A DNA stretch of 64,000 bases from an uncultured Clostridia bacterium (GTDB taxonomy: Bacteria > Bacillota > Clostridia > TANB77 > CAG-508), in NCBI GenBank assembly GCA_948485625.1, contig CAOMRW010000002.1, positions 4,452 to 68,451 on the forward strand. The letters run 5' to 3'. The notes beneath the pieces are model-generated. The model did no database searches, was not told where the DNA came from, and saw nothing but the letters and a program-made list of their open reading frames with translations. A program made the translations under genes and the position numbers. This document shows, piece after piece, positions 3,234 to 62,540 of the stretch (position 1 is its first letter; each line of letters begins with the position of its first letter).

Positions 3234-3249
3234 TCTTTTCCCTCCTTTC

Positions 3250-6200
3250 CTACATTAATCTTTTGTCTATAATTAATTTTTTTATTATAAATCCTGCTAT
3301 TCCAACCATTACAATTGTTGCAACAATTAAAGATACTGTCATAACAACTTGACCTGTTCTTATACTTATAATTAGGTCTGCTGCTCCCATATCGTTTTCA
3401 CCTTTTACCTTATTTCCTTCAGTTGAGTTTACATCAGTTAATCCTAATTCATTATATGAACTTGCTATTTCAGCTGTATTATTAATTAATCCTGTGTTAT
3501 TCTCTTTCATTTCTTTTATTACTGTTAAAGTAACCTCTCTACTTTCACCAGGTGCTATTTTCTCATTTGCAAGGCTTGTACAATATACATCTTTTCCAGA
3601 TTGATACCAGTCTTTATTTAATTCAGAATTAAACTTATAATCACTTGATAAATAATCTGCTATCTTCTTAACATATGCTGCCACATCACCCTTATTTGTT
3701 ACTTTTATTGTATATTCAACTACTATTATCGTAGAGTTAACTTGTTTTGCATCTATTTCTTGTTTTACTAATGTTGCATCTTTGTATGTATTTGTTACTG
3801 TCTTATTATTCTGTACTGTAACTTTACTTATATATTTATCTAATTGTAAATCATAATTTTTAGCAGTTACTAACCCAATATTGATATTTGATATATTATT
3901 ATCATTTATATTTATTATTTGTGTTGCTGCTACTTTACTCTCTTTTCCATCAATCTTTATAGTTTTTGTAATTACATTTGAATTCAAGTCATCAGAAATT
4001 CCTTCTTTTTCAAATATAGTTAATCCATATTTAGTATTATCATATTCAAATATAACTAAGTATTGACCTTTTACTACTTTATCAAAACTATAAAATCCTG
4101 TTGAACTTGTTGTTGTAGATAAAATGTTTCCATTTTTGTCTTTTACAAATTCATTTTTAGATGTATCAAGTAATTTCACTGTCATACCTTCTATTGTTTT
4201 TTCATTAGAATCTCTTTTTCCATCATCATTTTCATCTATCCAAGCAACACCTGAAATTATTTTATACTCTTCAGGTTTTGAAGTATCACCATTATTGCCA
4301 TTGTTTCCATTGTTTTCATTATTCTCATTATCTTCATCTCCAGTTGTTCCATCTCCACCATTATTTAAACCTTCTTCTGGTTGTAAAATATGTGTAATTT
4401 TTGCTTTAGAAATCACTGTAGAAAATATCTGTAATGAAGCCTCATCTATTATTTCAATTGACTTTGTGTTTCCTAATAATAAATTTACAACTACTTCAAT
4501 TTCATATTCAATAGTTTCTCCAACATTTAATGGATTGTGTTTCAATACTAATAATTTCTGATTTTTAGTATCATCAACTTTTAATGAATAGTCTTCTTCT
4601 GATAACTGTGTTCCATTTTTCATTACTTTTACTAATGAAACTTCATTTGAAATCCAGTTTCTTAGAGTTATAGCATTAGCAACTCTTTCCCCATTATTTC
4701 TAATAGTAATATTATATTTTATTCTATCTCCTGCTTTTACATATTTTCCACTATTTTCTGAATCCATATTCATACTTACTTGTAAATCAGACTGTGCTAT
4801 TACATTAACTTCATTTGAATTATATTTTTCATTATTAACTTCACAATTTGCTGTAATATATACTTCTTTTGAAGAAACATCATCAAATATCTCTACTGTT
4901 GTATAAATTACCAATTCAATAGTTTCACCTGGTTGAATTTCTGCTATTGTTATATTATTTGAATTTTTCTCTGTAATAATTCTGTCATTATAATCATAAT
5001 AAATCTCAAAAATATCTATAAAATCATTTGTATCTATTGTAGCTTTAACATTTTTTAATACTCTATCTGAATTGTTCTTAACATTTAAAACATATCTATA
5101 CTCAAATCCACTTTTAACAATATTACTAATAGCATCAATAGAAATCAATTGTAATTCTAATAGTCCATCTTTTACAGTTGTTTTAGTCTCATTTGAATTT
5201 TTAGTAACCTCCCCATATTGTGTTGTAACAGTATTAGCAATATCTTTTCCAGACATTCCTTTATTTACTTTTACTTCATAATATCTTGTTACTTTTTGTC
5301 CTTTTGGCAAATTATCTATATTAAATTCAACTTGTTTCTTATTAACATCTTCAAATTCTAAGTCATCTAAAGCAACTTCATTATTTAAAAAGTCTGTATT
5401 AACATATGTTGTACCATCAGGAACATTTGCTTTAACTTTTACATTTGATATATCTTCTGAACCCACATTAGCCACAACAACTGCATATCTTAATACTTCA
5501 TTTTCTCTTACTTCATTAGTTTCTTTTCTTGCAACCAATGTCTTCAATGTAGTCTCAAGAACTGTTCCTTTTGGAGTTCCCAATCTAATAGCCTTTGTAT
5601 TAACTTGTTCATCTATTGTCACGTTTTTATAGTATACTGTATATCCCTCTTCCGCTGTCTCATTATATTCAAGATTAGATGGTATAGTTATATCATATGA
5701 TATATTAATAGTTTCTAATAAATCTAACTCATCAATAACAACTAAATATTTTTTAACAAGTTTATTATCTTCTATACTATCAGTCCAATTATTATCTTTA
5801 TTAGATAAATCTTCTGTTGCCATTTCATTATTTGAATAATATACTTTTACTCTACTAGCATCTATATCAGATATTTGTAAGTTCCCAACTTCTATATCCA
5901 TATTGTTAACATCCATTGCTTCTTTTGTTGGAAATGCTCCTAATATTTTTACATCTGAAATTTTATTTTCTTTGTTATTTATTATTTCTTTTCTAATTGT
6001 AACACTCTTTGTATCTGTTGCAAGAGCTAACTCTCCTGCAAGTGTTCCTTCATTATTTACAACATCTATTCCATATTCTGAAATTTGATTTGTTGTTACA
6101 ACACCAGCATAAGAAACTATATTTATATCTTTGCTAACTGTTCCTTCATTTGAATTTCCTGTTACATTATTATTCACATATGTTAATTTAATTTGTTCTA

Positions 6201-8139
6201 CACTAGTTGGAATCTTTTTACTTGTCATTAAATTAGCATTTATTATAATTACTGCACCTTCTATAGCTTCTTCTTTATATTTAGTTTGTTCTCCATCTAA
6301 AACCATTTCAATAGTTCTACCATTTAAAACCGCTGATTTTATTACTAACTCATCCTCATAAAGTAATTTGATATAATTAACTTTTATATCTTGTATTTTC
6401 TCAGGCAATTCTAATCTTATAACTGGATTTTTAAATAATTGATTATTCTCTTCTCTAGAATTCAAAACAACTCTAAATTCAACATTATCATTAGATGTCA
6501 TTGCTGATAATTCTGTTCTATTAATTTGTAAATCTACTGATGTCTCTGTTTCTTTTAATTCAATGTTTGATTCAATAGTTCCTAATGAAACTTCATTATT
6601 ATCCTTAACATATGAAACAGCAGATTTCAAATTTATAGAATTTGAATCTTTAACTATATTTCTATCATTATCAATTATTGTCTTTGTATTCTGTATTTCT
6701 AATTTCCCTATTCTTTCAGACTCTACAAATCTAAATACAACAGTTTTTATATTTTCTGGATATGTAACAACTACAAATCCACTTTCATCTGATGCAGTAT
6801 CTTTATTTATTGTTGTTATAATATTTCCTGTTACAGCATCTAAAATATTTAATAATCCTTTTTCACCTAATAAATTATCTATATCAGATTTTTTAATTCT
6901 AGTAGTTCTATAATTTGCATTTAATGTACTTTCACCTATAGTTTGAATCTCTTCTCTAAGATTAATCTCATCTGCAACATTATTCAAATTAACATTTACT
7001 ATATTTTTATAAGTAATATCTCTTGAAATACCTGAATATAAGTTTCCTTTATAAATACTTGCTTCATTCTGATATGTATCTATAGTAACAATAGAGTCCT
7101 TTTCATTTTTATCTAATGTAATTTCATTAGAAGCTTTCATAACTGTATTACCCAAATCATAAAGCTCAATATTTGAACTTATGCTACTCTTTTCATCATT
7201 TATTTCTACATCTTTGTCTAGAACATATGTAATTATAAATTTATCTTCTCCATTTTTTCTCCAAGAAACTTTATTATTTTCATTAACATTTTCTATATTA
7301 ATAGAAATTACACCTGATTCATTATTATAATTCCAATCATTTTTTGATAGCATTTTACCATTTGTCATCAAAACATCATTTGAATTAACTAATACACTTT
7401 CAGGATATTTATCTAAAATTTTAGGAGCTTGAATATTAACTATAGTTTTTTCTATTGGAAACAAATTATCTTTCAATCCAGCTCTAACTTGTAATTGTAT
7501 AACTCTTTTATCTTCACCATTAAAATTAAGAATTTTATTAGTTATAATTTCTTGTGATAATATTATGCCATCATCAACATTATCATATGGACTAACTAAT
7601 CTCAAAGATATATTTCTATTAGAATTTATAGCAATATCTTTTTGTAAACTGTCTCTATAAATACCCTCTATAGAAACATCACTTTCCATATTAATAAAAT
7701 TCAAATCAAATTGCTCCTCTTTTAATAAGTCAATTCCTACTTCTATTTCTTTAGTTTCTCCAGCATTTATTTGATTTAAAACTATAACATTATTCTCTAT
7801 TCTACTTATTGACTCACTTAATACTTCTGGTTTAATTCTAAAATTAGCATTATTTAAAACTATATTTCCATTAAAATATCCCTCTTGTTTTACAGATATT
7901 TGAAAATATACTTTTAGATTACCATTATTTGTATAAGTATCTAACTCTGTAATCTTATTTTCTCTTTCATCCTTAAAATAAGCCATAAATTCTATATTTT
8001 TATGGTTTGTGTTCTTATTTACATTCATTGCATCAGCTGCATAAGATACCACATCAACACATAACAATAAAAAATTTGCCATTGTCAATGTCACAATTAA
8101 TAGCATTGATGTTATAACTTGTAAAATTCTTTGTTTCAT
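3250..8139 (-). CDS. giant secreted surface protein, A-type (1629 aa): DUF11-like repeats, SdrD-B/Cna-B-like module, C-terminal TM anchor
   Basis: Single 4.9-kb ORF with N-terminal signal peptide (MKQRILQVITSMLLIVTLTMANFLLL). SdrD-B-type module SGVAWIDENDDGKRD...GFYSFDKVVKGQYLVIFEYD. C-terminal DUF11-like domain (YDLQLDKYISK...EYTIKVTNKGDVAAYVKKIADYLSSDYKF...APGESREVTLTV). It ends IISIRTG + hydrophobic helix + KKLIIDKRLM, which resembles a sortase-type sorting signal without LPXTG. Confidence 0.8.
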   Translation of the reverse strand: MKQRILQVITSMLLIVTLTMANFLLLCVDVVSYAADAMNVNKNTNHKNIEFMAYFKDERENKITELDTYTNNGNLKVYFQISVKQEGYFNGNIVLNNANFRIKPEVLSESISRIENNVIVLNQINAGETKEIEVGIDLLKEEQFDLNFINMESDVSIEGIYRDSLQKDIAINSNRNISLRLVSPYDNVDDGIILSQEIITNKILNFNGEDKRVIQLQVRAGLKDNLFPIEKTIVNIQAPKILDKYPESVLVNSNDVLMTNGKMLSKNDWNYNNESGVISINIENVNENNKVSWRKNGEDKFIITYVLDKDVEINDEKSSISSNIELYDLGNTVMKASNEITLDKNEKDSIVTIDTYQNEASIYKGNLYSGISRDITYKNIVNVNLNNVADEINLREEIQTIGESTLNANYRTTRIKKSDIDNLLGEKGLLNILDAVTGNIITTINKDTASDESGFVVVTYPENIKTVVFRFVESERIGKLEIQNTKTIIDNDRNIVKDSNSINLKSAVSYVKDNNEVSLGTIESNIELKETETSVDLQINRTELSAMTSNDNVEFRVVLNSREENNQLFKNPVIRLELPEKIQDIKVNYIKLLYEDELVIKSAVLNGRTIEMVLDGEQTKYKEEAIEGAVIIINANLMTSKKIPTSVEQIKLTYVNNNVTGNSNEGTVSKDINIVSYAGVVTTNQISEYGIDVVNNEGTLAGELALATDTKSVTIRKEIINNKENKISDVKILGAFPTKEAMDVNNMDIEVGNLQISDIDASRVKVYYSNNEMATEDLSNKDNNWTDSIEDNKLVKKYLVVIDELDLLETINISYDITIPSNLEYNETAEEGYTVYYKNVTIDEQVNTKAIRLGTPKGTVLETTLKTLVARKETNEVRENEVLRYAVVVANVGSEDISNVKVKANVPDGTTYVNTDFLNNEVALDDLEFEDVNKKQVEFNIDNLPKGQKVTRYYEVKVNKGMSGKDIANTVTTQYGEVTKNSNETKTTVKDGLLELQLISIDAISNIVKSGFEYRYVLNVKNNSDRVLKNVKATIDTNDFIDIFEIYYDYNDRIITEKNSNNITIAEIQPGETIELVIYTTVEIFDDVSSKEVYITANCEVNNEKYNSNEVNVIAQSDLQVSMNMDSENSGKYVKAGDRIKYNITIRNNGERVANAITLRNWISNEVSLVKVMKNGTQLSEEDYSLKVDDTKNQKLLVLKHNPLNVGETIEYEIEVVVNLLLGNTKSIEIIDEASLQIFSTVISKAKITHILQPEEGLNNGGDGTTGDEDNENNENNGNNGNNGDTSKPEEYKIISGVAWIDENDDGKRDSNEKTIEGMTVKLLDTSKNEFVKDKNGNILSTTTSSTGFYSFDKVVKGQYLVIFEYDNTKYGLTIFEKEGISDDLNSNVITKTIKIDGKESKVAATQIININDNNISNINIGLVTAKNYDLQLDKYISKVTVQNNKTVTNTYKDATLVKQEIDAKQVNSTIIVVEYTIKVTNKGDVAAYVKKIADYLSSDYKFNSELNKDWYQSGKDVYCTSLANEKIAPGESREVTLTVIKEMKENNTGLINNTAEIASSYNELGLTDVNSTEGNKVKGENDMGAADLIISIRTGQVVMTVSLIVATIVMVGIAGFIIKKLIIDKRLM

Positions 8140-8592: not shown

Positions 8593-9903
8593 CTAGTAAA
8601 GTGTGGCACGTGGACTAATGCTAATGTAGCTGTGAGAAGTAGTGGTGATGCCACGACAAGAAGCTGAATAGTCGGAACCATTAAGGTAGTAAACACCTCC
8701 CCTGTAAGCACAAGGATTAATGCTATCAAACATCCATCGCTCTAGTGTCCATTCAAATTCATTACCAGCCAAATCATAAATATTCATCTTATTAGTCTGC
8801 TCTGATGATCCTGTTGTTAATAATTGATAATAACTTGTATTACTTGAGGTTTGACTTGATGTTACATAGTTTTCTGTATCTTCATTAAATGGTTTCCATA
8901 TACTTGTTGGACTCTCTGGGTATACATTATACTTCCCTCTACTTAGTGTTAAACTACTATCAGTATAATTCCCCCATTCTTTACAATCTCCTTTTGTTAT
9001 TGCACTTCCTGCCTTTTCATCTATAAATTTACATGTTAAGTCCCATTGTATTCCAAATAATAAACTTGTTGTTTTATTTGTATCTGGTTTCATTCTATCT
9101 GCTAGTGTTTGAGCTTGACTACATGTTACATAATTATATGGTATTTGGTCTATTCGACTTACTGCCTCTCCTGTTATTCCACTTGACGCTGTTCTTGTTT
9201 TATTACTAGCTGTTGCAGTAGCATCACCTATTTCATATCTACTTATCCAAAATCCTCCATTTGAAAATACACTACTTAACATTTTTTCATAATTTTCTTT
9301 ATATTCATAATATGTTAATCCACATCCATTATTCAATTTCTTTTGCTCTTCTGTTAAATTTGTAGTTCTTTCATTTACTAATATCTCTCCATCTAAGGCA
9401 TGCCATTCATCTGCGAAACTACTAGTTCTATAATTTGTTGGAGTTGTTACATAATTTATTAAATCTGCTTTTATTGTATCATATTGCTTTGATTCTGTTG
9501 CAGTAAATATAGTCTTAGGCACTTCCACCCATGTCCATTCATTATCTTTACTATCTTTTATTACTATTCCTTTATTTGCATCTCCCTCTACAACTTCTTT
9601 TGTTCCATCTGGCATTGCACTTACTGGGTCTGTTATAGATGTATCTACATTTTTTATTTCTTCTCCTAAATTACTTCCTCCACTTAAATTATTTCCTAAA
9701 AATCCATTTATTGTATCTTCATATTCTTTTAATGTAGTATTTTCTCCTTCTTGAGCTTCTACTGATTTATTTTTTGCCTCTCCTGCTTTCTCAAATAATC
9801 CACTTCCTGTTAGACTTGCTATTGATATTCCTGCCAATATTAAAAGAATTATTATTGTTATTACTAGAGCAATTAGTGTTATTCCTTTGTTTTGTTCTTT
9901 CAT
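8593..9903 (-). CDS. membrane-anchored extracellular protein: pilin-like N-terminal signal anchor + FGE-sulfatase (SUMF1-like) domain
   Basis: N-terminus MKEQNKGITLIALVITIIILLILAGISIASLTGSG is a class-III/prepilin-like signal lacking Glu+5. C-terminal motifs GGFWISRYEI, IYDLAGNEFEWTLE and CAYRGGVYY match FGE-sulfatase family hallmarks (GFYMxKYEVT, DMSGNVWEWT, RGGSW). First gene of the cluster that continues with A1 and B1. Confidence 0.7.
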   Translation of the reverse strand: MKEQNKGITLIALVITIIILLILAGISIASLTGSGLFEKAGEAKNKSVEAQEGENTTLKEYEDTINGFLGNNLSGGSNLGEEIKNVDTSITDPVSAMPDGTKEVVEGDANKGIVIKDSKDNEWTWVEVPKTIFTATESKQYDTIKADLINYVTTPTNYRTSSFADEWHALDGEILVNERTTNLTEEQKKLNNGCGLTYYEYKENYEKMLSSVFSNGGFWISRYEIGDATATASNKTRTASSGITGEAVSRIDQIPYNYVTCSQAQTLADRMKPDTNKTTSLLFGIQWDLTCKFIDEKAGSAITKGDCKEWGNYTDSSLTLSRGKYNVYPESPTSIWKPFNEDTENYVTSSQTSSNTSYYQLLTTGSSEQTNKMNIYDLAGNEFEWTLERWMFDSINPCAYRGGVYYLNGSDYSASCRGITTTSHSYISISPRATLY

Positions 9904-50485: not shown

Positions 50486-52120
50486 TTACTCTATAACATT
50501 AAATGGTATATCAGAATCTAAAGCTAATTTTTGTATATCATCTTCTGGATTATGTTTTACAACTTGATTTTGTACATCTGATATATATTTTATTTGCATA
50601 TCTTTTCCACATGCCATTGAAACTAAATTAGATATTTCTTTTACATTTTCTTGTTTTTCCAAAACAGCTTTTCCAAAAGCAGTTATTCCTCTTTGAAATT
50701 TAATTTCTACTGTTTTATCATTTATTTGTTCAGCTTTTGTATTTATCAAATTTGTATATAATACTATTTTTCCATTTTGTTTTAAATCATTAACTATTTT
50801 AGGCCAACTCTTATTTAAATCACTTGAATAACTTTTTGCATTATTATTAGATGTTCTTACAGCTGGTGCACTCACTTGTATCGTTTTATTATCATTTTCA
50901 TTTGCAATAACTCTTGTAACTGAAGAATTATTTGCATTTTGCATAACTGGATTTGAAACTACTTGTTGCATAGATACTTTACCTGATTTTAAATAATTTT
51001 CTATTTTTTCAAGTCTTTCTTCAATATTATTTCCACTTCCAATTTCATTACTACATAATTTTATCATACCAGCTTCAAACATTATACTTTTTTGAGTAGA
51101 CCATTTCATATCATTTTCTATATTTGACAACTCGTAAATCAAGTTAACTAATTTCTCTTTTGTTACTTTATCAGATATCTTTTTTATATTAGAAATTTCT
51201 TCATCACTATATAAATCTACTTTACCTGAAGATTTATAAATTAATATATCTTTTACATATTTTATAATTTCCCATAAAAAATTATCTAAATCTTTTCCTT
51301 GATTTAATATTTCACTTATACTTTCAAGTGCCTTATCAATATCATATTCAATAATTGCTTCTGTGATACTATGAACAAAAGTTATTTTTGGAATTCCTAC
51401 TAAATCCCTGATTTTGTCTTCATCAATTTTATTTTCTCCATCTTGTATACATCTCTCTAATATTGACAATGCATCTCTCATTGCACCCTCTGATAAAACT
51501 GCTATAATATTTAAAGCACCATCTGTAGTTTCAATATCACTCTCTTTACAAACAATTTTTAATCTCTTTATAATATCATCATTTGATATCCTTTTAAAAT
51601 CAAATCTTTGACATCTAGAAAGTATTGTTGCAGGTAATTTTTGAGGCTCTGTTGTTGCTAAAATAAATTTAACATGCTCAGGTGGTTCTTCTAATGTTTT
51701 CAATAATGCATTAAATGCCCCTGTAGAAAGCATATGAACCTCATCTATAATATATACTCTATATTTTGCCTTTGTAGGCAAAAAATTAACTTCCTCTCGA
51801 ATACTTCTAATATCTTCAACACTATTATTAGAAGCAGCATCCATTTCTACAATATCTGTAAGAGAACCATTAATAGCTCCTTTACAAATCTCACATTCAT
51901 TACAAGGCTCTCCATCTTTTGGACTTAGACAATTTATTGCTCTTGCCAAAATCTTAGCAGAAGAAGTCTTTCCTGTTCCTCTTCCTCCATTAAATAAATA
52001 TGCATGTCCAACTCTATCAGCTATAATCTGATTCTTTAAAGTTCTTGTAATATGTTCTTGACCAACAAGTTCTGAAAAAGTTGTAGGTCTAAACTTTCTA
52101 TAAAGAGCTGTGTACCCCAT
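50486..52120 (-). CDS. dnaX: DNA polymerase III subunit gamma/tau
   Basis: AAA+ clamp-loader motifs GGRGTGKTS, zinc module C..C..C, SRC motif. Likely true start MGYTALYRKFRP at 52120 (track ORF extends to 52258). Confidence 0.9.
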   Translation of the reverse strand: MGYTALYRKFRPTTFSELVGQEHITRTLKNQIIADRVGHAYLFNGGRGTGKTSSAKILARAINCLSPKDGEPCNECEICKGAINGSLTDIVEMDAASNNSVEDIRSIREEVNFLPTKAKYRVYIIDEVHMLSTGAFNALLKTLEEPPEHVKFILATTEPQKLPATILSRCQRFDFKRISNDDIIKRLKIVCKESDIETTDGALNIIAVLSEGAMRDALSILERCIQDGENKIDEDKIRDLVGIPKITFVHSITEAIIEYDIDKALESISEILNQGKDLDNFLWEIIKYVKDILIYKSSGKVDLYSDEEISNIKKISDKVTKEKLVNLIYELSNIENDMKWSTQKSIMFEAGMIKLCSNEIGSGNNIEERLEKIENYLKSGKVSMQQVVSNPVMQNANNSSVTRVIANENDNKTIQVSAPAVRTSNNNAKSYSSDLNKSWPKIVNDLKQNGKIVLYTNLINTKAEQINDKTVEIKFQRGITAFGKAVLEKQENVKEISNLVSMACGKDMQIKYISDVQNQVVKHNPEDDIQKLALDSDIPFNVIE

Positions 52121-52169
52121 AATTTCACATCCTTTATATATTTTTCTACAATAAAAAGTTGATATATAA

Positions 52170-52440
52170 CTGAACAAAATTATATTTATATACCAACTTT
52201 TAAATATATCGTCCCTTATAGTATAAAATTCAATCCCTCTATGGAAAGTATTCCACATAAAGATAATCTACTTATTGCTGCTTCCTTCCGGACCTGACAA
52301 GATTCGTAGGTCTCTATTGGATTACTCTCCATACAAAGATTAAACTTTATACAACTGTAATTATATACTGTCTTTCTAAATTTATCAAGTATTTTTTATA
52401 AACTAATTAAATTATATTATATTCTTCTAAAATTATATCC
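52170..52440 (-). ncRNA. ffs: signal recognition particle RNA (long Bacillus/Clostridium-type scRNA)
   Basis: Minus strand carries the invariant domain-IV motif GTCAGGTCCGGAAGGAAGCAGC (plus strand 52278..52299 = gctgcttccttccggacctgac). Conserved synteny scr-dnaX-ybaB-recR as in B. subtilis. End coordinates approximate. Confidence 0.7.
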
Positions 52441-52445
52441 ACAAA

Positions 52446-53210
52446 CTATAATCTTTTAAAAATAATATCCTTTAAATCAGTATATTCTACACTTTGAGTT
52501 CCATTATTCACAATATCATTAACAGGAAACTCTAAATTAATACTAGACTTATATGCTTTATTTGAATTAAGATTAATACAAATATCAAATGAAACCCTAA
52601 ATTTCAAATCATCATTATTAATAGACAATTTCTTCAATAACTGACTATGATTAATCTCTTCATCATCATTTGAAACATAATTTCCTATATTATTAACTGC
52701 ATACCTAAAAGTAACTAAACCACCTTGATTAGATATTTTCATGTCTTTTATACTTGACTCCATACCACCTAAATATTCTATCTTATCTACTTCATTTTCA
52801 ACTATATTTTTAAAGATAACACTTTCTACATTACTATCAGGTTTTAACAGTTTTATTTCTCCTATTTTTGGACCTTGCACAATATTAAAATTGTCTAACT
52901 TTATACTCTCAATTATCTCTGAATTCTTATAATTATCATTTTTCTTAATATATAAATATATATCATTATTCTGATTAACAGATAAACTCCATCTATTTGA
53001 ATTATCTTCTATATCAGTACCCTCTATATTACTTATTACAGATATTTTTGATAAATAAAATGGTAAATTAGTTTCACCTTCTACATTATATTTCAAAACA
53101 ACAAGACCTACAAAAAACAATATAGTAATAACTATAAAAGCTACCATAAACATATTAAATTGTGCTGTATTTACTATTCTTTTTATTTTATCTCCCAACT
53201 TTTCCTCCAA
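52446..53210 (-). CDS. hypothetical N-terminally anchored extracellular protein
   Basis: One TM helix, then a 220-aa Asn/Ile-rich domain. ORF only. Confidence 0.45.
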   Translation of the reverse strand: MEEKLGDKIKRIVNTAQFNMFMVAFIVITILFFVGLVVLKYNVEGETNLPFYLSKISVISNIEGTDIEDNSNRWSLSVNQNNDIYLYIKKNDNYKNSEIIESIKLDNFNIVQGPKIGEIKLLKPDSNVESVIFKNIVENEVDKIEYLGGMESSIKDMKISNQGGLVTFRYAVNNIGNYVSNDDEEINHSQLLKKLSINNDDLKFRVSFDICINLNSNKAYKSSINLEFPVNDIVNNGTQSVEYTDLKDIIFKRL

Positions 53211-53373: not shown

Positions 53374-53460
53374 ATAACATAAATATAATATAACAAATTT
53401 TTATAATTTTGTAAATAAATATTACAAAAGAATGCAACATTTCTGTTACATTCTTTTATT

Positions 53461-56400
53461 TTAGTCTAATAATTTTTTCTTAATTAACACTATTCCACAT
53501 GATAAAATTACTAAACTTCCTAATCCAACTAAAACATAAATAATTATATTCTCTGCTCCTGTTGGAGGTACTATTACTAATTTTGCATCATGAGGTGTAT
53601 ATGGTTCATCTGGTGGCACATTTGGGTCTGGGTCTGTTCCTGGACTTGGCTTTGGAATCTCTGTGTCATTTATATATCTATTATATCTTCCATAATAACT
53701 ATTATCACACTCGTCATTACTACTGTTTTTATCTGTTGCATTTCTTACATTAAAGTTTCCTGGTGTCGCTAATTCCCATCCTTTATTTTCAACCATTTCT
53801 CCATAGAATCTACCTACTGAGTTTGATACTTCTAGTAATTCAATATAATTGTCAAATACTTGGTCATTATTATTTAAGTCTGTTAATAATTTTTTAGCTG
53901 ATAAATTCATTCTTGTGTACTCATTTGGTGCAAGTTCTTTTTTCTCAAGATTTTTTACAACTATATTATTTCTGTTTTTTATTGCATTATATACATCTGG
54001 TGAAATATCTATTCCTGTAAGTTTATTATCTGCTAACATTGCTACATCTCCTTGTAATTGCCATCTAGTTTCATTAGTATTTGATGGATTATAATATGTA
54101 AATTCACTACTATTATTAATATCATATGTTATTGATAATTTTTCATCTACATAGTCTACAATAGAGTGTAATGCTATTTTTACAGGCGTTAATCCATTTG
54201 TATCTCCATATCTATAATATTTTGTATCATCATAATCAAGCTCTGATCTATTGTCAATTCTTATATCATATGTCATATCTAATGTTGCACCTTCAATAAT
54301 TTCATTATCTACTTCTATTTTTACAGGTCCAAAATCTGGATAAGTTACATAATTTATGTCATCTTTTCTAGGATCTCCTTCTATTAACACTTGTTTATTT
54401 GCTAATACTACTGCTATTCTACTTATCTCTTTATTTACTTGTATACTTTGTCTTGGTCTTTCTGCTATACCAAAATTAATCTTATATACTCTTGAACCCT
54501 CACTATATTCATTAGGCGTTGTTTGTTGTCTATGGTCTTCTATAGCAAAATCCATGATTCCTGTATAAGCTAACATATTTTTATATTCATTACTTTCAGA
54601 ATTTTCATAATCAGTCTTTGTTGCATAATTTATAGTACTTAGATAATTATTAATGTTGTTTCTTATTTCTTTATCATCTACTGCTGAAGAATCTAATGAA
54701 TTCTCATTTCTTCTATACCAGTACCATATATCATCTGGATTTGATTCATTTTCATGGATTAATCCACTAGCTAATAAATTTTGACGTCCATTTGGTGTTT
54801 CTTTTTTATTGTTTTCAATTAATACTTTATATTTACTTTCATTAACAATTGTAGATTTATAATCTTGAGTTGTAATTGGTATATCTCCCATTTTTGTTTG
54901 TATATTAATCACTTTATTAGCATCATTTGTATCAGTATAATCATATTTTCCATATTGATATTGTATATAATATTCTCCTGGAACTAATCCTTGAATTTTA
55001 TATTCACCATTACTATCAGTCAAATATTGTGCATTTTTTATTACAACATTTCCTTCTTCATCTAAATTATACAATTGTGTAGTTGTATCATCATCATAGT
55101 TCTGTACTTTAACTTCAACATTTTCTATTTTCTTTTCGCCATCATCATAAACACTATTTCCTTTTCTTTCTTGATTTGTTTTAAGTTCAGCACTTGTACT
55201 ATCTTCAAATACTAGACCAGAAATTATTTTTGATTCTTTTCTTGTGAATTTTAAATCTGGTGCTACATCTGTATCATCTTCATATGTATCTGATGAATTA
55301 TAATCTACATTTCCTGGAGCTGAATCTTCATCAATTCCACCATATTTACTTCCATCTTTAGCATATGTTGTATATGAATTTATTTCAGTAAGATTTCTAT
55401 TTATATTCAATTCTTGTCCATCTTTCAAATTAGCTAAACTTACAATTGTATCTGTATTTACTTCATATTTTAAGTATATCATTATACTTTCAGCAGGATT
55501 TATATTCTCTAATTCATTAGTCTGCCATATATTAGTTCCATTAGAATTTCCTACATTAGTCCAATTTACATTTACTCTTGCTCCACTATTATTAGTATAA
55601 TATGACTCTTCAACCTTTTCAAATCTTGTATCAGCATAATTATTTAAACTTACTCTTGAATATAAACTTCCACTTTCATTTTTTACTGCTATTTTATATG
55701 TTACAAATACTCTTAATCTATTCTCATTACTTGGATCTTCTTTTGTATATGCTATATATGAATCATATATTCCTCTTGTATAACTACAATTTTTATAATT
55801 TCCACTAGCATTTTTTACTCCAACAGAGAATCCATCTAAAGCTGCATCATATCCTTTATTTATATCAACATCTGGCACTCCATTATTCATATATGGATTT
55901 CTTTGTTTATATTCATATGTATGTGTATATCCATTAATTGCTAGTTGTATATCATCTATATCTGTTGCAATCGCTAAATCTGGTTGTGCTCTTCTATAAA
56001 TACCTAAATTTATATTCCTAATTGTTTTTACACCTGTACTCCATCTTATTGCATACCCTGCTGTCCCTGTATCCGCTAACATTTTTGCTTTGCTTACATC
56101 TGTACTTCCTGTTAGTGATTCCGCTGTATACCCTGTATTTTGTACTAATTCTGAATTCCAATTTTCTCCACTAGTATAGTTCAATTCTACACCTGTTCCT
56201 GTTTTTCCTTCTGTTCTTGTAGATGTTTTTGTATTTCCTCCTGATATACTTGAATAATTATCATTTAACGTTGTTCTATCTACTGATTTTTCATCTGCCT
56301 TTGAACCATTATCTCTTGTTAAATTTTTAATTACACTTTGATATTTTAATCCATTATATTCAAACTCTACTGAATATTGAGATAATTCACTTATATTTAT

Positions 56401-59400
56401 TGTATACTGACTTCCTGTTCCATTTGCATTATATGTTCCTTTTGCTGGGAATACATATTCACCATTTGCATTTGTTCTTCTTTGAGCAATTATTGTTCCA
56501 TTTTTCTTCAAACTTACTAATATGTTTCCTATTCTTTTATCTATTCCATTATTATCATATAACTCATTTCTTGTTGCAGTCTTACTTGTTTGTATATCCT
56601 CCCATACATATCCCTCTAAATCAACTCGTAATTGTGCATTTGGGAATTGTGTATTTGTATTTGTTCCATCAGCATTATTTTGTAATGTAACTGAAAGTAT
56701 ATTTGAACTAACATCATAATACTGAGACATATCACTTGGTATTTCAATCTCTTTTATATGATATGTATAATATTGTGGTATATTATTTAATCTAAATTGA
56801 CCATTATTATCTGTTACAAATACTTTCGCATTATTTTCATCAGTTGGCGTAAATGTCGATGGTGCACTTCCATTCTCTCTGTAATCACTACCTATAAATC
56901 TTGGTGTTCCATCTGTTGGAGTCGTATAATAAATCTTAAACTTAACATTTCTAAATACAATATCTTCTAATTGATGTAATGTATTTCCTGTCATATTATC
57001 CTGTTTCTTACTTTGGTCTACTTTCTCTACAATTAAGTTTCCATATTTTTTATTTGTAAAAGTAATATTAGATGTTTTACCAGAAACTATATTTACTGTT
57101 GTACTTGCTACTTGTAAAGACATATTATATCCATTAGGTGCTCCTACTTCCTGAACATAATAATCACCTGGCAAAAGATTTGTAACTTTTATTGTTGAAG
57201 CCTCCATTGTAAAAGTTTGGTCATATCCATTAGGACCTGTAATTCTTATTTGTGCTCCTGTTAATCCTGCATTTGTATCAGCATCTTTCTTAGTTATTTC
57301 TATGTTTCCTCCTAACATAGTATTAATTCCTTTAGTATCTGTTGCAGCTCCATATACTTCTTCTGGGTTCATAGTAATAAGAGTCTGATATCCATTTTTA
57401 GGATTACCTGCTGTACATTTACATCTATAATAAAGATTCACTCTTGCATCAATATATAACAACACTTTCTCAGTATTTAACTGTAAGTCGAAATATAATT
57501 GTCCTATAGAACTTTCAGACACATAAATATATATATTATCTCCATTATTTATATTTCTGACTGTATTTCCATTTATATCACATATATTGGCATTAACTTC
57601 TTTCCCATCTACCTTACAACTAACTATTTCTCCAGTTACATTTGAAGTAGTAGTTGTATAATTAACTTTATATGGCCCTACAATACTATATGTAGATGTA
57701 TTTTTTACCATTTTAGCATTACTATTATCTATAGCATCTAATGTTATACCTGCAGAACCTGTTGAACTAACATTGCTAAATAAATTATGATAGTATTCTC
57801 TCATTGTACCATTATAATTAAATGGTATACTACAAGGACCTCTTTCTACCCAAGCCATTACTTCTTGTTCACTAGTTCCTACTGAATATTCTTGTTTCCA
57901 ATAGTATAAATCACATCCATTTTTACTTAAATGCTCTCCTGGATCTAAACACCAATATGGTTGACCTTGATTAACAGTAGACCATGTGCCACTTTGATAA
58001 TGTTCTCCTAATGAAAACCATTTTATTATAAAATGTCCATTTTCTTCTACAGTATCTCCATTATTAGGACAATCTGTTCCATCTAAATGTTGATAATGAC
58101 GTTGAAAAGCAATAACTGATACTGATTTTATAAAAATTGTTGAAATTGCCAAAATTATAATACATATCATAAAAATATATCTTTTCTTTTTATTTTTTAT
58201 TATAACTGCAATAATTAGCATTGCAACTAATCCTATTATTCCATATATAAGATATGTAACAATTCCTGTCTTTACAGAAATAATCACTTCTGCCTTTGAA
58301 TAATCATCTTCTGTTTGACTTCTATTTCCTGCTACTGAATCAATATCTTTTAAATTTTTTGTATTAACTAATTCACTTATTTCTGCCTCATTCACTATTC
58401 TACCAATATTATTTTGTGACAATCTCTTTGATAATACTAATGTTAATTCCTTACTTTCCCCTGGCTGTACCTTTACATTAGATAAAGTCGTATTTTTTAA
58501 ATCTCCACTTGAATTTCTAATCCATCCTTTATTTAGTTCATTACTAAATGTCAATTCACTTGGTAAATAATCTACAATTTCCTTTATATATCCTTCTACT
58601 TCTCCTTCATTTGTAATTATAATCTTATATTCTATTAACACATCACTACTATCTAATTGTTTTGCAGGTATCTCTACTTTTGCCAATTTTGAATTATTAT
58701 ACTCTGTTACTTTTGTTCCACTATTATTATTTACTGTTATTTTACTTACATATTTATCTAATCTAAAATCAAATGTTGGATTCAATATAAGTCCTAAATC
58801 TATATTATTTAAATCTTTATTATCCACTTTAAGTATATCTGTTATTCCAACTTCTTTTTCGATTCCATCTATTGAAACTATTTTATTTATTGCATCTGAA
58901 TTTAATGAATCAGTTACACCATTTCTTTGATATTTGGTTATACTATATCTATTTGTATCATATTCAAATAATACAAGATAATTACCTTGTTCTATATCTT
59001 CAAATTTATACTTTCCATCATTGCCAGTTAGAGTTTTTACAATATTATTATTTTTATCTACTACAATAGAATTTGTATCTGAATCAAATAATTTTACTGT
59101 AACACCTCCTAATAATTCTTCTTTCTCATCCCTCTTTCCATCTCTATTTTGGTCTATCCAAACAATCCCACTTATATTATAGGCTTTATTTTCTTCTGAG
59201 CCATTTGGATTATCTGGTTCTTCAGGATTTACAGGTTTATCTGGATTATCTGGTTCTTCTGGATCTTCATAGTCCACTGGTAAAATAGTGTTCTTTATGC
59301 TATTTGATATCTTTGTTTCTATATTATCTCCATATACTATTGCTGTATTCTCTGCTTCCATAATCTCATCAACTGGTTCAACATATGCAAAAATCTTTAT

Positions 59401-62316
59401 TTTCAAACTTGATTCTTTTAGTATATATGTTTTTAATTCAAAATCATTCTCATCAGTTTCTTTCCCAGAAGTAAGACTTCTTTCTTCTGTAACCTTTTCA
59501 TCTTTACCAGTATCTGGATTAAATTTATAATACTCATATATTGCCTTGGTAGCTTTTATTCCTTTTGGCATATTATCTACTATCTTGATTGTTGTTGCTA
59601 TTAAACCATTATTAGTTACAGTTATATCATACTCAATTTCATCAAAACTTTTTAATTTTTGACCTTCAGTAGGACTTTCTTTTATTACACTTACACCTGT
59701 GTGATATACAATTTTTTCTTGATTATCAGCTCTATATTTATCTGTATTCTCTCCATATACAATTACATTTATAGGAATATTATATTCATACTTATCATCC
59801 TTTAAATTTGTAGCAGCTAGAGTTACTAAAAATCCATGTTCTGAATTTGCCTTAATCTCATCAAACTTTAATTTCAAATTTCTACTTTCTTTATCATAAT
59901 CTGCATCTGAATTAGCATCAGTACATTTAAGGAATTCCATTTCTTCTGAAAAGTCAAACTCTGCAATTAGGTTTTTAATATCTTCATCTGTCTTATTCTT
60001 TATATTAACTAAAAAAGTCCATGCATCTTTTGAATTAAGAAAGAACTGTTGCTTTCCTGGATAAAGTTCAATACTCAATTTAGCATTTTTAGCAATAGAT
60101 TTTATTGTCTTACTTAATATTTGTTTATCATTATTAGAAATATTTATTACATTATCTATGTCTTTCTGTAATGTTCCTTCTAAATCTTTTACCATTACCT
60201 TATAATTCTTAACAATCTTTCCTCCTACTGGTAATTCCTCTATCTGAAATTCTACTTGTTTTCTATCTTCCTCTTTTATATATAAATCATTATATATTTC
60301 ATCTTCTGATTCATCTCTATCAGGATTTGCTACCTCCCCATCTTTTGTAATATACACTGTACCCTCTGGTACATTTCCCATTAATTTTAAGTTTTTTATT
60401 GAATTAATACTATTATTAGTCATTGTAATTGTATAATTTATAACTTCATCTTCGTAAACTATATCACCATCTTTTAAAATGTCATTTCCAACTTGTGCTT
60501 TTATTTCAACATTTAATCCATCTATACTTGTAATATTCTCTTCATCATTTACAATACTACTTTGAGAATCATCCTCTAAATCATTTTTTGTATTAATAGA
60601 ATTTATCTTAATACTATACTGTTTTAAATCTTTCCCTTCATTTTGATAATCATTTACACTACTATTCTCATTTGAATATATAACAGATAAATTTGTCGTA
60701 ATCGCTGATATATCTTTCTTTACTATAACAGTAGCAGGAATCACAATATGTGCACCATCAACAATTGCACTTTCTATATATCCTTTTTGACTTCCATCTA
60801 CTTCTATTTTAATAACTTTACATCCATCTTTTTCTATAACTTCTGCACTCTTTATTTTTAAATTATCGTCATATAGTGCAGAAACATCTCCTAGAATAAC
60901 TTTTTCAACTTCTGATGGTAACTTAATTTCAATTACAGGATTTTTAAATAAACTATATCTAACATTATTAGTAACTAGTATAGCTGTCATAATAACATCA
61001 TTTTGTATACTATTTGTCCATTCTGTCTTATCAAGTGATAAATCAATCTTTGTTTCAGAATCTTTTATTTCTATTTCATTATTATTTACAAAACTATATA
61101 TCTCTTTATTATCTTCTACAATCTCTTCTGTTTCTTCATTTTTATCTTGTACTTTATCAATACAACTAATACTACTTGTAACTTTAATTCTATTATTATC
61201 TACTTCGGTCATATCTTCTTTAATTTGTTTTGTATTTTGAAGTGAAAGCTTACCAATATTTATTAATTTACTTGTTCTTATGCTTAAGCTATTTACTTCA
61301 TTTTCATATATAATTTCATAAATGCCATTTTCTCCAACTTCAGTATCTTTGTTTATTTCTCCTAAAACATCACCATCTTTATCTAAAATTTGTAAATAAC
61401 CATTTTCACCTAACATATTCATTAAATCATTTTTGTTAATTTTTGTTGATTTATATATTATTGACTCTGTATCAATATTATCACCTTTTTTATTTACAAA
61501 ATTATTATCTATACTTACATTAACCTCATCAGACACATCTTTCTTGCTTATATCTATCTCAAAATTCTCAATATATTCAGTTCCATATGTTGTAGCATTT
61601 TGAGCATTAGAATTTATATATCCATTATAAATTTCAGATGATTTTACATTTGTTGATATTAATCCAGAAATATTTTCTGTTACTGTATATTCTTGCATAA
61701 TATCACATTTTACTTTAACTTCACTATCATCTTCATTTTTTATAATTGATTGAACAAATCCTGAAAATTCTAGTACTCTTTCAATATCACTATCATTATA
61801 GCAATTAGAATCATAATAGCAAATAACAGTATATTCATCTCTTGCACCATCTACATTTTCACTATAAATATTTCCATTATCATCTTTTTCATTAACAGCT
61901 ACAATTCGAAGTTCTCCTGTCTCTTTATCATAATCAAAAGAAAAATCCTTTGCTTCATCATTTCCATTTGTTGCTTTTGTAGATTTGCCTATAACTTCTA
62001 CACTATCTGGATATTTACTATTAATTTCAGAAAGTTTTAATGAACCCCCCATTGCCTGTAATGGCTTATATTCTTCTCCCTCTCCATATTCAATTCCAGT
62101 CTTTAAATTAATTTGCATCAATACCCCTGTATTATTATCAATATTATAATTGACATATTTCTCCAAATTAATTTCATACAATAAATGTATTTTAGACTCA
62201 TCAATAATTCCTTGTATTGCATCAACTGCTTTAGACACAAGCAATAACAATGAACTATTTATTAATAACATCATCAAGACTAAAATAACAACTATCTTTT
62301 TCATTAGTTCTTTCAT
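53461..62316 (-). CDS. 2951-aa surface protein ORF = in-frame fusion of an A-type (aa 1-1382) and a B-type (aa 1383-2951) giant adhesin-like protein; C-terminal VPPTG sorting signal
   Basis: Signal peptide at the N-terminus. A-type part ends ...IISVKTG-IVTYLIYGIIGLVAMLIIAVII-KNKKKRY (sorting-signal-like), then runs without a stop into MICIIILAISTIFIKSVSVIAFQ (signal-peptide-like; ATG 58170..58168, in frame). B-type part carries Cna-B/SdrD-B modules (GYVWEDIQTSK...GEYVFP; LVFEDSTSAE...GEYYIQYQYG). C-terminus VPPTG + hydrophobic helix + KKKLLD. Confidence 0.8.
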   Translation of the reverse strand: MKELMKKIVVILVLMMLLINSSLLLLVSKAVDAIQGIIDESKIHLLYEINLEKYVNYNIDNNTGVLMQINLKTGIEYGEGEEYKPLQAMGGSLKLSEINSKYPDSVEVIGKSTKATNGNDEAKDFSFDYDKETGELRIVAVNEKDDNGNIYSENVDGARDEYTVICYYDSNCYNDSDIERVLEFSGFVQSIIKNEDDSEVKVKCDIMQEYTVTENISGLISTNVKSSEIYNGYINSNAQNATTYGTEYIENFEIDISKKDVSDEVNVSIDNNFVNKKGDNIDTESIIYKSTKINKNDLMNMLGENGYLQILDKDGDVLGEINKDTEVGENGIYEIIYENEVNSLSIRTSKLINIGKLSLQNTKQIKEDMTEVDNNRIKVTSSISCIDKVQDKNEETEEIVEDNKEIYSFVNNNEIEIKDSETKIDLSLDKTEWTNSIQNDVIMTAILVTNNVRYSLFKNPVIEIKLPSEVEKVILGDVSALYDDNLKIKSAEVIEKDGCKVIKIEVDGSQKGYIESAIVDGAHIVIPATVIVKKDISAITTNLSVIYSNENSSVNDYQNEGKDLKQYSIKINSINTKNDLEDDSQSSIVNDEENITSIDGLNVEIKAQVGNDILKDGDIVYEDEVINYTITMTNNSINSIKNLKLMGNVPEGTVYITKDGEVANPDRDESEDEIYNDLYIKEEDRKQVEFQIEELPVGGKIVKNYKVMVKDLEGTLQKDIDNVINISNNDKQILSKTIKSIAKNAKLSIELYPGKQQFFLNSKDAWTFLVNIKNKTDEDIKNLIAEFDFSEEMEFLKCTDANSDADYDKESRNLKLKFDEIKANSEHGFLVTLAATNLKDDKYEYNIPINVIVYGENTDKYRADNQEKIVYHTGVSVIKESPTEGQKLKSFDEIEYDITVTNNGLIATTIKIVDNMPKGIKATKAIYEYYKFNPDTGKDEKVTEERSLTSGKETDENDFELKTYILKESSLKIKIFAYVEPVDEIMEAENTAIVYGDNIETKISNSIKNTILPVDYEDPEEPDNPDKPVNPEEPDNPNGSEENKAYNISGIVWIDQNRDGKRDEKEELLGGVTVKLFDSDTNSIVVDKNNNIVKTLTGNDGKYKFEDIEQGNYLVLFEYDTNRYSITKYQRNGVTDSLNSDAINKIVSIDGIEKEVGITDILKVDNKDLNNIDLGLILNPTFDFRLDKYVSKITVNNNSGTKVTEYNNSKLAKVEIPAKQLDSSDVLIEYKIIITNEGEVEGYIKEIVDYLPSELTFSNELNKGWIRNSSGDLKNTTLSNVKVQPGESKELTLVLSKRLSQNNIGRIVNEAEISELVNTKNLKDIDSVAGNRSQTEDDYSKAEVIISVKTGIVTYLIYGIIGLVAMLIIAVIIKNKKKRYIFMICIIILAISTIFIKSVSVIAFQRHYQHLDGTDCPNNGDTVEENGHFIIKWFSLGEHYQSGTWSTVNQGQPYWCLDPGEHLSKNGCDLYYWKQEYSVGTSEQEVMAWVERGPCSIPFNYNGTMREYYHNLFSNVSSTGSAGITLDAIDNSNAKMVKNTSTYSIVGPYKVNYTTTTSNVTGEIVSCKVDGKEVNANICDINGNTVRNINNGDNIYIYVSESSIGQLYFDLQLNTEKVLLYIDARVNLYYRCKCTAGNPKNGYQTLITMNPEEVYGAATDTKGINTMLGGNIEITKKDADTNAGLTGAQIRITGPNGYDQTFTMEASTIKVTNLLPGDYYVQEVGAPNGYNMSLQVASTTVNIVSGKTSNITFTNKKYGNLIVEKVDQSKKQDNMTGNTLHQLEDIVFRNVKFKIYYTTPTDGTPRFIGSDYRENGSAPSTFTPTDENNAKVFVTDNNGQFRLNNIPQYYTYHIKEIEIPSDMSQYYDVSSNILSVTLQNNADGTNTNTQFPNAQLRVDLEGYVWEDIQTSKTATRNELYDNNGIDKRIGNILVSLKKNGTIIAQRRTNANGEYVFPAKGTYNANGTGSQYTINISELSQYSVEFEYNGLKYQSVIKNLTRDNGSKADEKSVDRTTLNDNYSSISGGNTKTSTRTEGKTGTGVELNYTSGENWNSELVQNTGYTAESLTGSTDVSKAKMLADTGTAGYAIRWSTGVKTIRNINLGIYRRAQPDLAIATDIDDIQLAINGYTHTYEYKQRNPYMNNGVPDVDINKGYDAALDGFSVGVKNASGNYKNCSYTRGIYDSYIAYTKEDPSNENRLRVFVTYKIAVKNESGSLYSRVSLNNYADTRFEKVEESYYTNNSGARVNVNWTNVGNSNGTNIWQTNELENINPAESIMIYLKYEVNTDTIVSLANLKDGQELNINRNLTEINSYTTYAKDGSKYGGIDEDSAPGNVDYNSSDTYEDDTDVAPDLKFTRKESKIISGLVFEDSTSAELKTNQERKGNSVYDDGEKKIENVEVKVQNYDDDTTTQLYNLDEEGNVVIKNAQYLTDSNGEYKIQGLVPGEYYIQYQYGKYDYTDTNDANKVINIQTKMGDIPITTQDYKSTIVNESKYKVLIENNKKETPNGRQNLLASGLIHENESNPDDIWYWYRRNENSLDSSAVDDKEIRNNINNYLSTINYATKTDYENSESNEYKNMLAYTGIMDFAIEDHRQQTTPNEYSEGSRVYKINFGIAERPRQSIQVNKEISRIAVVLANKQVLIEGDPRKDDINYVTYPDFGPVKIEVDNEIIEGATLDMTYDIRIDNRSELDYDDTKYYRYGDTNGLTPVKIALHSIVDYVDEKLSITYDINNSSEFTYYNPSNTNETRWQLQGDVAMLADNKLTGIDISPDVYNAIKNRNNIVVKNLEKKELAPNEYTRMNLSAKKLLTDLNNNDQVFDNYIELLEVSNSVGRFYGEMVENKGWELATPGNFNVRNATDKNSSNDECDNSYYGRYNRYINDTEIPKPSPGTDPDPNVPPDEPYTPHDAKLVIVPPTGAENIIIYVLVGLGSLVILSCGIVLIKKKLLD

Positions 62317-62540
62317 ATAAAATCCTCCTTGTTATAAAAAAACAATTATCCTTATGTTAATTATAGTTGCAATACTCTACATATTCAAGTCACATTTTTT
62401 TCCAAAGTTTTTATATTACAACATTAATATTTGAACTCTTTAGGGAAAAACGTTTTTATAATATTTATATATCTAAAATTAAGTTTATTTTACATTTTTA
62501 TTACAAAGTTTTTACTTCAGACAAAATAGATATATAAAAA

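Follow-up and report, generated by a model that had tools for sequence, protein, structure and literature searches.

An in-frame adhesin fusion conserved in gut Clostridia is probably a polyprotein cut at an internal signal peptide

How do two surface adhesins come to share one uninterrupted reading frame, and what becomes of the chain translated from it? This question is raised by a 64-kb stretch of DNA from an uncultured Clostridia bacterium (contig CAOMRW010000002.1; G+C content 26.6%), referred to in its entirety as the window, which carries two paralogous adhesin loci, both on the minus strand. At locus 1, an A-type and a B-type gene (A1 and B1) follow each other as separate genes, while at the second locus the corresponding parts, A2 and B2, share one open reading frame (ORF) of 2951 amino acids (aa). 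The original prediction, made from the letters of the window alone, offered three explanations for the second arrangement: (a) a genuine gene fusion whose product is cleaved at an internal signal, (b) two genes with internal re-initiation at ATG 58170, or (c) a sequencing or assembly error that removed a stop codon. As set out below, the fusion is genuine, and the ORF probably encodes a conserved adhesin polyprotein that signal peptidase would split at an internal signal peptide.

The ORF (53461..62316, stop codon included) begins with ATG and, as its listing and translation confirm, runs without a stop from an A-type part of 1382 aa into a B-type part of 1569 aa, ending in the VPPTG-containing C-terminus ...VIVPPTGAENIIIYVLVGLGSLVILSCGIVLIKKKLLD. 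A 15-residue Kyte-Doolittle scan of the whole protein finds exactly four hydrophobic segments, at aa 3-28, 1351-1375, 1379-1402 and 2923-2946. The first lies in the predicted N-terminal signal peptide MKELMKKIVVILVLMMLLINSSLLLLVSKAVDA (aa 1-33; 62218..62316), which ends in the AxA-like VDA, and the last in the cell-wall sorting signal of B2. The remaining two lie next to each other at the A-B junction, bearing out the earlier claim of an internal anchor and a signal-peptide-like segment in mid-protein.

The junction reads ...AEVIISVKTGIVTYLIYGIIGLVAMLIIAVIIKNKKKRYIFMICIIILAISTIFIKSVSVIAFQRHYQ and is composed of AEVIISVKTG, IVTYLIYGIIGLVAMLIIAVII, KNKKKR, YIFMICIIILAISTIFIKSVSVIA and FQRHYQ. 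The A-type anchor motif VIISVKTG (aa 1344-1351; 58264..58287), whose TG is invariant family-wide (T328, G329), is followed by a 22-aa transmembrane (TM) segment, TM1, which by its hydropathy is a putative stop-transfer anchor (aa 1352-1373; 58198..58263). Next come the predicted cytoplasmic loop KNKKKR (aa 1374-1379; 58180..58197; net charge +5) and the signal-peptide-like segment YIFMICIIILAISTIFI-KSVSVIA (aa 1380-1403; 58108..58179), delimited by hydropathy and a -3/-1 heuristic, within which the ATG at 58170 encodes Met1383 (58170..58168). Signal peptidase is predicted to cut after aa 1403, between the VIA that ends YIFMICIIILAISTIFIKSVSVIA and FQ. The six loop residues KNKKKR double as the charged tail of the A anchor and as the positively charged N-terminal region (n-region) of the internal signal peptide.

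Domain content, as read from the sequence, places both halves among the sortase-type adhesins and pilins of Gram-positive bacteria. The A part contains an SdrD B-like domain (PF17210; aa 1048-1149; 58870..59175; E 2.3e-13; 50.7 bits versus a cut-off of 29.7) and a DUF11 domain (PF01345; aa 1228-1317; 58366..58635; E 9.6e-10; 39.2 bits versus 24.6; also TIGR01451), both above the gathering threshold. Predicted mature B2 (aa 1404-2951; 53464..58107) would start with a short FQR followed by the peptide HYQHLDGTDCPNNGDTVEENGHFIIK, and three of its stretches match the SpaA/CnaB-type prealbumin-fold domain PF17802 (65.8 bits versus 23.1), the best of them at 57046..57309 (E 4e-18). Its sorting signal (53464..53571) consists of VPPTG (in the context VIVPPTG), the TM segment AENIIIYVLVGLGSLVILSCGIVLI and KKKLLD; with the NCBIfam model LPXTG_anchor, TIGR01167, the last 79 aa of the protein reach 18.5 bits (cut-off 15.9), and the full 1569-aa B part only 13.4. 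LPXTG substrates are recognised by an LPXTG-like motif that lies 17-45 residues from the C-terminus and is followed by a hydrophobic segment and a run of two or more basic residues (PMC4155245), and in B2 31 aa follow VPPTG, among them the TM segment and KKK.

Locus 1 provides the unfused counterpart within the same window. A1 (3250..8139; 1629 aa) ends in LIISIRTG, a TM segment and KKLIIDKRLM before the stop codon TAG at 3252..3250. A 16-nt spacer follows that holds a strong Shine-Dalgarno (SD) sequence, GAAAGGAGG (3241..3249, with GGAGG at 3245..3241; -16.1 kcal/mol), and B1 then starts at ATG 3233 with a signal peptide of its own, MKLRNKAIFYAITVLMLSIFLASGIVNALSA, and runs off the start of the window (1..3233). 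This is the order of TAG, GGAGG and ATG that had been described for the locus. The paralogy proposed for the two loci likewise holds, with 34% identity between A2 and A1 over 791 aa (E 9e-91) and 30% between B2 and B1 over ~800 aa (E 4e-65).

Could the missing stop codon be an artefact or a recent lesion, i.e. could an indel in an A-rich tract, introduced by sequencing or assembly, or a strain-specific mutation have taken out the A2 stop? The junction DNA is indeed A-rich (ATAATAAAAAATAAAAAGAAAAG), a single-nucleotide deletion would turn it into ...TTATGA with the classic ATGA stop/start overlap, and frameshifts occur inside the B part on some related contigs. Assemblies of the same organism, retrieved by exact match of the two neighbouring genes recR and AAA_14, nevertheless carry the same junction: a metagenome-assembled genome (L088; NCBI GCA_950096955.1) and a Logan assembly of run SRR10593864 (L089) each match the window at 100% identity over 8.5 kb, junction included. 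Exact look-ups of the 2951-aa product, of the neighbouring 254-aa ORF and of dnaX returned no record. More weight attaches to a third assembly, from another strain (L083; ENA ERZ28620489), because the other two may share reads with the window. Its allele shares 98.5% identity with the window over the final 3.6 kb of B and is unalignable, in mosaic fashion, over the A C-terminus and the B N-terminus; its junction is likewise fused in frame (...VIISVKTGVVTYTFIAIIMIVILIIVLKILKNRKIIKFVIFPVIILFVGITMITSVKSWSMDG...), with a predicted cut between ...VKTGVVTYTFIAIIMIVILIIVLKILKNRKIIKFVIFPVIILFVGITMITSVKS and WS. The unalignable stretch (L083:1-1604 versus 57066..58770 of the window) runs from the A C-terminus across the junction into the B N-terminus, and this divergence suggests a recombinational cassette exchange of the adhesin tip region.

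Beyond this organism, searching for homologues of the 800 aa around the junction brought up A-type proteins that nearly all end 28-37 aa past the invariant TG. In P0001 (54% identity) and P0005, by contrast, the chain passes through a charged loop and another hydrophobic segment before it enters B-like sequence. A scan of genome contigs with the single 800-aa junction protein found no relatives, and nothing was found in JGI metagenome contigs searched with a DNA pattern of the junction and a 400-aa junction protein. A six-sequence alignment of the A C-terminus, scanned against one genome per GTDB species, yielded 79 loci, all from metagenome-assembled genomes of uncultured gut Clostridia (from human, mouse, chicken, rabbit and goat; e.g. 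Clostridium sp. CAG:389 and Clostridium sp. 28_17). A script sorted the genome loci, together with two loci from metagenomes (L001 and L002) and both window loci, into 44 separate loci, locus 1 among them, that stop 27-39 aa past TG; 20 complete fused ORFs including the window's, with 1390-1900 aa after TG; four fused ORFs that leave their contigs; and seven in which B is interrupted or ends early, L001 and L002 among them. The fusion syntax recurs in ~30 species-level genomes. An exhaustive phmmer search of 1.84 billion representative proteins, with the A2 C-terminus of the window as sole query, agrees: the anchor is present in 89 of the best 150 matches, of which 38 are fused (2313-3386 aa), 11 partial fused and 40 separate, which makes 49 of the 89 fused in all.

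In a neighbour-joining tree of the last 330 aa of A, the separate loci, L050 excepted, form one clade with A1, while the remaining deep branches are fused loci and include A2; six further genomes possess one fused and one separate locus. Locus 1 and the separate clade share with the fused locus the gene order, the anchor motif, the features of the B signal peptide and the B sorting signal, and differ from it by the stop codon, SD and start codon between A and B. The A part measures ~1570-1800 aa in separate loci as against ~1345-1420 aa in fused ones, a division that A1 and A2 (1629 and 1382 aa) fit. Two separate loci, L018 and L021, whose A stop lies ~34 aa past TG, end in KKEKINIKKFKI directly before the stop, like the fused loops, with an SD following, and L050, a separate locus, branches among the fused loci. 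From these apparent switches of state, fusion and fission seem to have occurred more than once.

Taken against an artefact, then, stand the same junction in two other assemblies and another in-frame allele in another strain, some 30 other fused species together with 49 fused protein clusters among the best 150 matches, with unrelated junction sequences, loop lengths that vary by whole codons, and a fused state that follows phylogeny. The assembly-error reading is refuted, the probability left to an artefact or recent lesion is negligible, and the fusion half of explanation (a) is borne out across a large family. The orthologous comparison that had been called for finds the junction kept as one frame, with its signal-peptide character present.

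The B part is interrupted in 6 of the 31 fused loci, with a long ORF continuing after each break. Frameshifts are seen at L001:~3005-3033 (beside an A7 run), L017:~8366, L031:~4745, L038:~7559 and L062:~1930, and an in-frame TGA at L005:9234-9236. These interruptions could be due to assembly error, pseudogenisation or phase variation.

What is conserved at the junction becomes apparent when 31-34 fused sequences are compared. TM1 measures 15-23 aa, the loop 6-15 aa with a net charge of +3 to +7 in 31/31 loci, and the second uncharged segment together with its polar C-terminal region (c-region) mostly 19-24 aa. At the best -3/-1 site, position -1 is occupied by A in 26 of 34 sequences and by G or S in four each, and position -3 by V, S, T or A in 31 of 34. 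Since loop lengths differ by whole codons and loop sequences are unrelated, the reading frame itself is the conserved feature. A stop-transfer TM segment, a positive loop and a hydrophobic segment with small -3/-1 residues are found in the window and in all 33 related fused sequences, and the same syntax reappears in the 49 fused clusters of the independent protein library. The C-terminus of almost every complete fused ORF consists of [VILT]P[PS]TG, a TM segment and a K-rich tail. In stand-alone B proteins, for their part, the initial M is followed by an n-region rich in K/R (net +1 to +5), a hydrophobic core (h-region) and an AxA-like site. Because these signal peptides resemble the junction, the latter can be read as a B signal peptide in which n-region and charged A-anchor tail have become one.

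Such a junction raises the possibility that two functional genes merely share a frame, with B made partly or wholly by internal initiation at or near ATG 58170 and read-through being incidental. An in-frame ATG does stand where the h-region begins in 14 of 31 fused loci, the window's among them, and the A-rich loop could allow weak SD-independent, leaderless-like initiation. Yet no fused junction has an SD, as opposed to a GGAGG-type SD in 44/44 separate loci, where the anti-SD duplex before B reaches -11.5 kcal/mol or lower throughout (median -15.6), the SD stands 4-10 nt from the start codon and the gap between A stop and B start is mostly 11-22 nt. At fused junctions the duplex has a median of -5.9 kcal/mol, which equals background; in the few cases where it is stronger, it falls past the h-region or comes without a start codon. 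The weak ribosome-binding site AAAGAAAAG earlier assigned to ATG 58170 amounts effectively to none, the best value anywhere at the window junction being -4.1 kcal/mol as against -16.1 before B1; the ATG itself is present. In twelve of the 31 fused junctions, the stretch between TM1 and the h-region is free of in-frame ATG, GTG and TTG, and in only six is there a start codon from which the n-region would retain any K or R. A start at M1383 of the window would leave no positive n-region charge, versus the net +1 to +5 of stand-alone B. As A has no stop codon, its ribosomes necessarily run on into B. A promoter scan inside the ORF gave 82 promoter-like matches where 81.7 are expected and, being at chance level, lends no support to an internal promoter. 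Internal re-initiation, explanation (b), is therefore disfavoured and unlikely.

Alternatively, programmed -1 frameshifting or transcriptional slippage in the A-runs of the lysine codons might set a ratio of A-only to A-B product, as in dnaX. The window does contain an in-frame A_AAA_AAT (58181..58187, minus strand) at which the -1 frame meets TAA at once and would give an A protein ending in ...AVIIKK. Slippery heptamers, however, occur in 7/31 fused junctions and in 7/44 stand-alone A tails, i.e. they are neither enriched nor conserved, and the longest A-runs are mostly 5-7 nt; no stimulatory element was noticed, though none was looked for. A programmed frameshift at the junction was rejected on this lack of enrichment, and we rate this explanation as very unlikely.

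The ORF is thus best considered as a single translation unit that is probably cut into two displayed proteins. Its only strong SD, AAGGAGG (62324..62330), lies 7 nt upstream of ATG 62316, and one mRNA with one ribosome-binding site would yield one chain. The N-terminal signal peptide would begin Sec export of the A part, the A anchor (VIISVKTG and the 22-aa TM segment) would halt transfer, and the KNKKKR loop would be kept in the cytoplasm by the positive-inside rule. The second hydrophobic segment could then restart translocation as an internal signal peptide, after which signal peptidase I would cleave behind VIA (aa 1403). Freed B would be exported and joined to the wall by sortase via its C-terminal VPPTG, with A either staying membrane-bound on the hairpin or being released at the invariant TG. 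A plausible selective logic is that fusion would enforce 1:1, co-localised production of A and B, an output that the separate paralogue at locus 1 would approximate by tight translational coupling.

A genuine fusion need not be cleaved, and the chain might instead persist as two ectodomains tied together by a central TM hairpin, with the C-terminus anchored to the wall by sortase. Fusion and hairpin geometry are as evident for such a protein as for a cleaved one, whose cleavage is a prediction, and membrane hairpins with loops of 6-15 residues are stable anchors. The second segment, however, looks like a signal peptide rather than a TM segment in that its hydrophobic core is shorter and followed by a polar c-region; it has a small residue at -1 (A, G or S) in 34/34 sequences and also at -3, across sequences that are merely 40-55% identical; and it matches the cleavable signal peptides of stand-alone B paralogues. 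Moreover, a B domain held at both ends could not reach out from the wall. An uncleaved chain is thus possible but considerably less probable than a polyprotein cut at its internal signal peptide.

Several points weigh against the cleaved polyprotein. Cleavage, topology and sortase processing are all predicted, with cleavage sites called by a crude -3/-1 heuristic rather than by a trained predictor. The ATG near the h-region in 14 of the 31 fused junctions, the window's included, means that some fused members may use SD-independent initiation. The A anchor is devoid of the LPXTG proline and has no match to the NCBIfam LPXTG model, and a proline-less clostridial motif, NVQTG, is not cleaved in vitro by SrtB of C. 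difficile (PMC4155245). No sortase was found in the 64-kb window, where no ORF has a TLxTC motif, and a sortase-like ORF lies nearby in just 2 of ~80 related loci (L015 and L061); the idea of a sortase neighbourhood was rejected on these grounds.

As to the A-type C-terminus itself, all A-type homologues carry the invariant TG in the context [IVL][IVL]S[IV]xTG, followed by a TM segment and a basic tail (58264..58287 and 3328..3351 of the window, minus strand). In 44/44 stand-alone A proteins this TG lies 27-39 aa before the stop, which is the geometry of a cell-wall sorting signal. A further and more doubtful idea is that the linker is cleaved twice, signal peptidase freeing B and a sortase cutting A at S[IV]xTG and joining it to B or to the wall. 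If true, one translation event would give a stoichiometric, co-localised and covalent two-subunit fibre, a minimal heterodimeric pilus built from a polyprotein, and the motif would define a new class of sortase signal.

In the N-terminal part of B, PF17802 is matched in 16/23 relatives, and a profile of the B N-terminal region, compared with the PDB, hits pilin and adhesin structures (including 6fwv, 4oq1, 3kpt and 2ww8) in its SpaA/CnaB part only; a homologue search with the N-terminal 450 aa of B2 gave just two weak SpaA-domain matches. In an alignment of 23 B N-termini (A3), the domain that would open the mature protein (window ~57950..58104, minus strand) is hypervariable, with a mean column identity of 19%, and contains an invariant Cys ~50 aa into mature B as well as a GP pair. 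A thioester domain as the setting of this Cys is unsupported by Pfam and by the PDB profile search, PF08341 being undetected in 23/23 B N-termini at E<=0.05.

Outside the coding sequence, a promoter-like TTGAAT-17-TATAAT (62360..62388; 10/12 matches) precedes the fused gene and is merely suggestive, because such matches occur at chance frequency across the region. A terminator-like hairpin with a 16-bp stem (53424..53459) directly follows the stop codon. ORFs without a Pfam match adjoin the adhesin loci at 52446..53210 (minus strand; 254 aa) and 8593..9903 (minus strand; 436 aa); the former is conserved beside the fused gene in L082-L084, with a called length of 250 aa there. The nearby dnaX (window counterpart 50486..52258) is split into 470 + 75 aa by a frameshift near its 3' end in L082:4363-5989 and L083:6551-8177, from a related strain, and is one 544-aa gene in L084:1625-3259.

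The implications of a fused adhesin gene reach beyond this locus. Gene callers report a hypothetical protein of ~3,000 aa, and signal-peptide predictors look at N-termini only; because of these annotation habits, the B adhesins of dozens of gut Clostridia species are invisible as separate surface proteins. The junction also illustrates how the tail of a Gram-positive sorting signal and the n-region of a signal peptide can become one and the same positively charged loop. A genome that has both a fused locus and its separate paralogue lends itself to asking, by comparison of the two, why stoichiometric coupling of adhesins is selected. If the predicted cleavage is true, the family would constitute a widespread natural bacterial secreted polyprotein resolved by an internal signal peptide. 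We know of few bacterial precedents for this strategy, which is textbook knowledge for enveloped viruses, and a search of one literature library found no paper linking an internal signal peptide with sortase substrates.

The closest known systems include the sortase-anchored adhesins and pilins such as SdrD, RrgA/RrgB, SpaA and Cna-type proteins, with which the fused product shares PF17802, PF17210 and PF01345, an N-terminal Sec signal peptide and, in B, an LPXTG-like VPPTG with its TM segment and basic tail. Those, however, are individual proteins, each with its one signal peptide and its one sorting signal, whereas here two such proteins are encoded as a single chain, and the upstream partner has the proline-less [IVL][IVL]S[IV]xTG that the LPXTG model misses. 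In layout, a parallel is the orthobunyavirus Gn-NSm-Gc precursor, whose cleavage at internal signal peptides has been demonstrated (PMC6784171). It, too, lines up an ectodomain, a TM stop-transfer segment, a short cytoplasmic segment, an internal signal and the next ectodomain in one ORF, but it is processed in the eukaryotic endoplasmic reticulum by host signal peptidase, has no sequence relationship to the adhesins and differs in that cleavage here is a prediction. The structural polyproteins of flaviviruses and alphaviruses are likewise processed at internal signal peptides. Within bacteria, the cytochrome b-c1 polyprotein FbcH of Bradyrhizobium japonicum, reportedly described by Thony-Meyer and colleagues around 1991, is said to be cleaved at an internal signal sequence. 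It concerns Gram-negative respiratory proteins, with a polytopic upstream partner and neither sorting signal nor sortase, yet it reportedly shares with the adhesin gene the essential plan of one bacterial gene giving rise to two envelope proteins through a signal-peptidase-type cut after a membrane-embedded upstream part.

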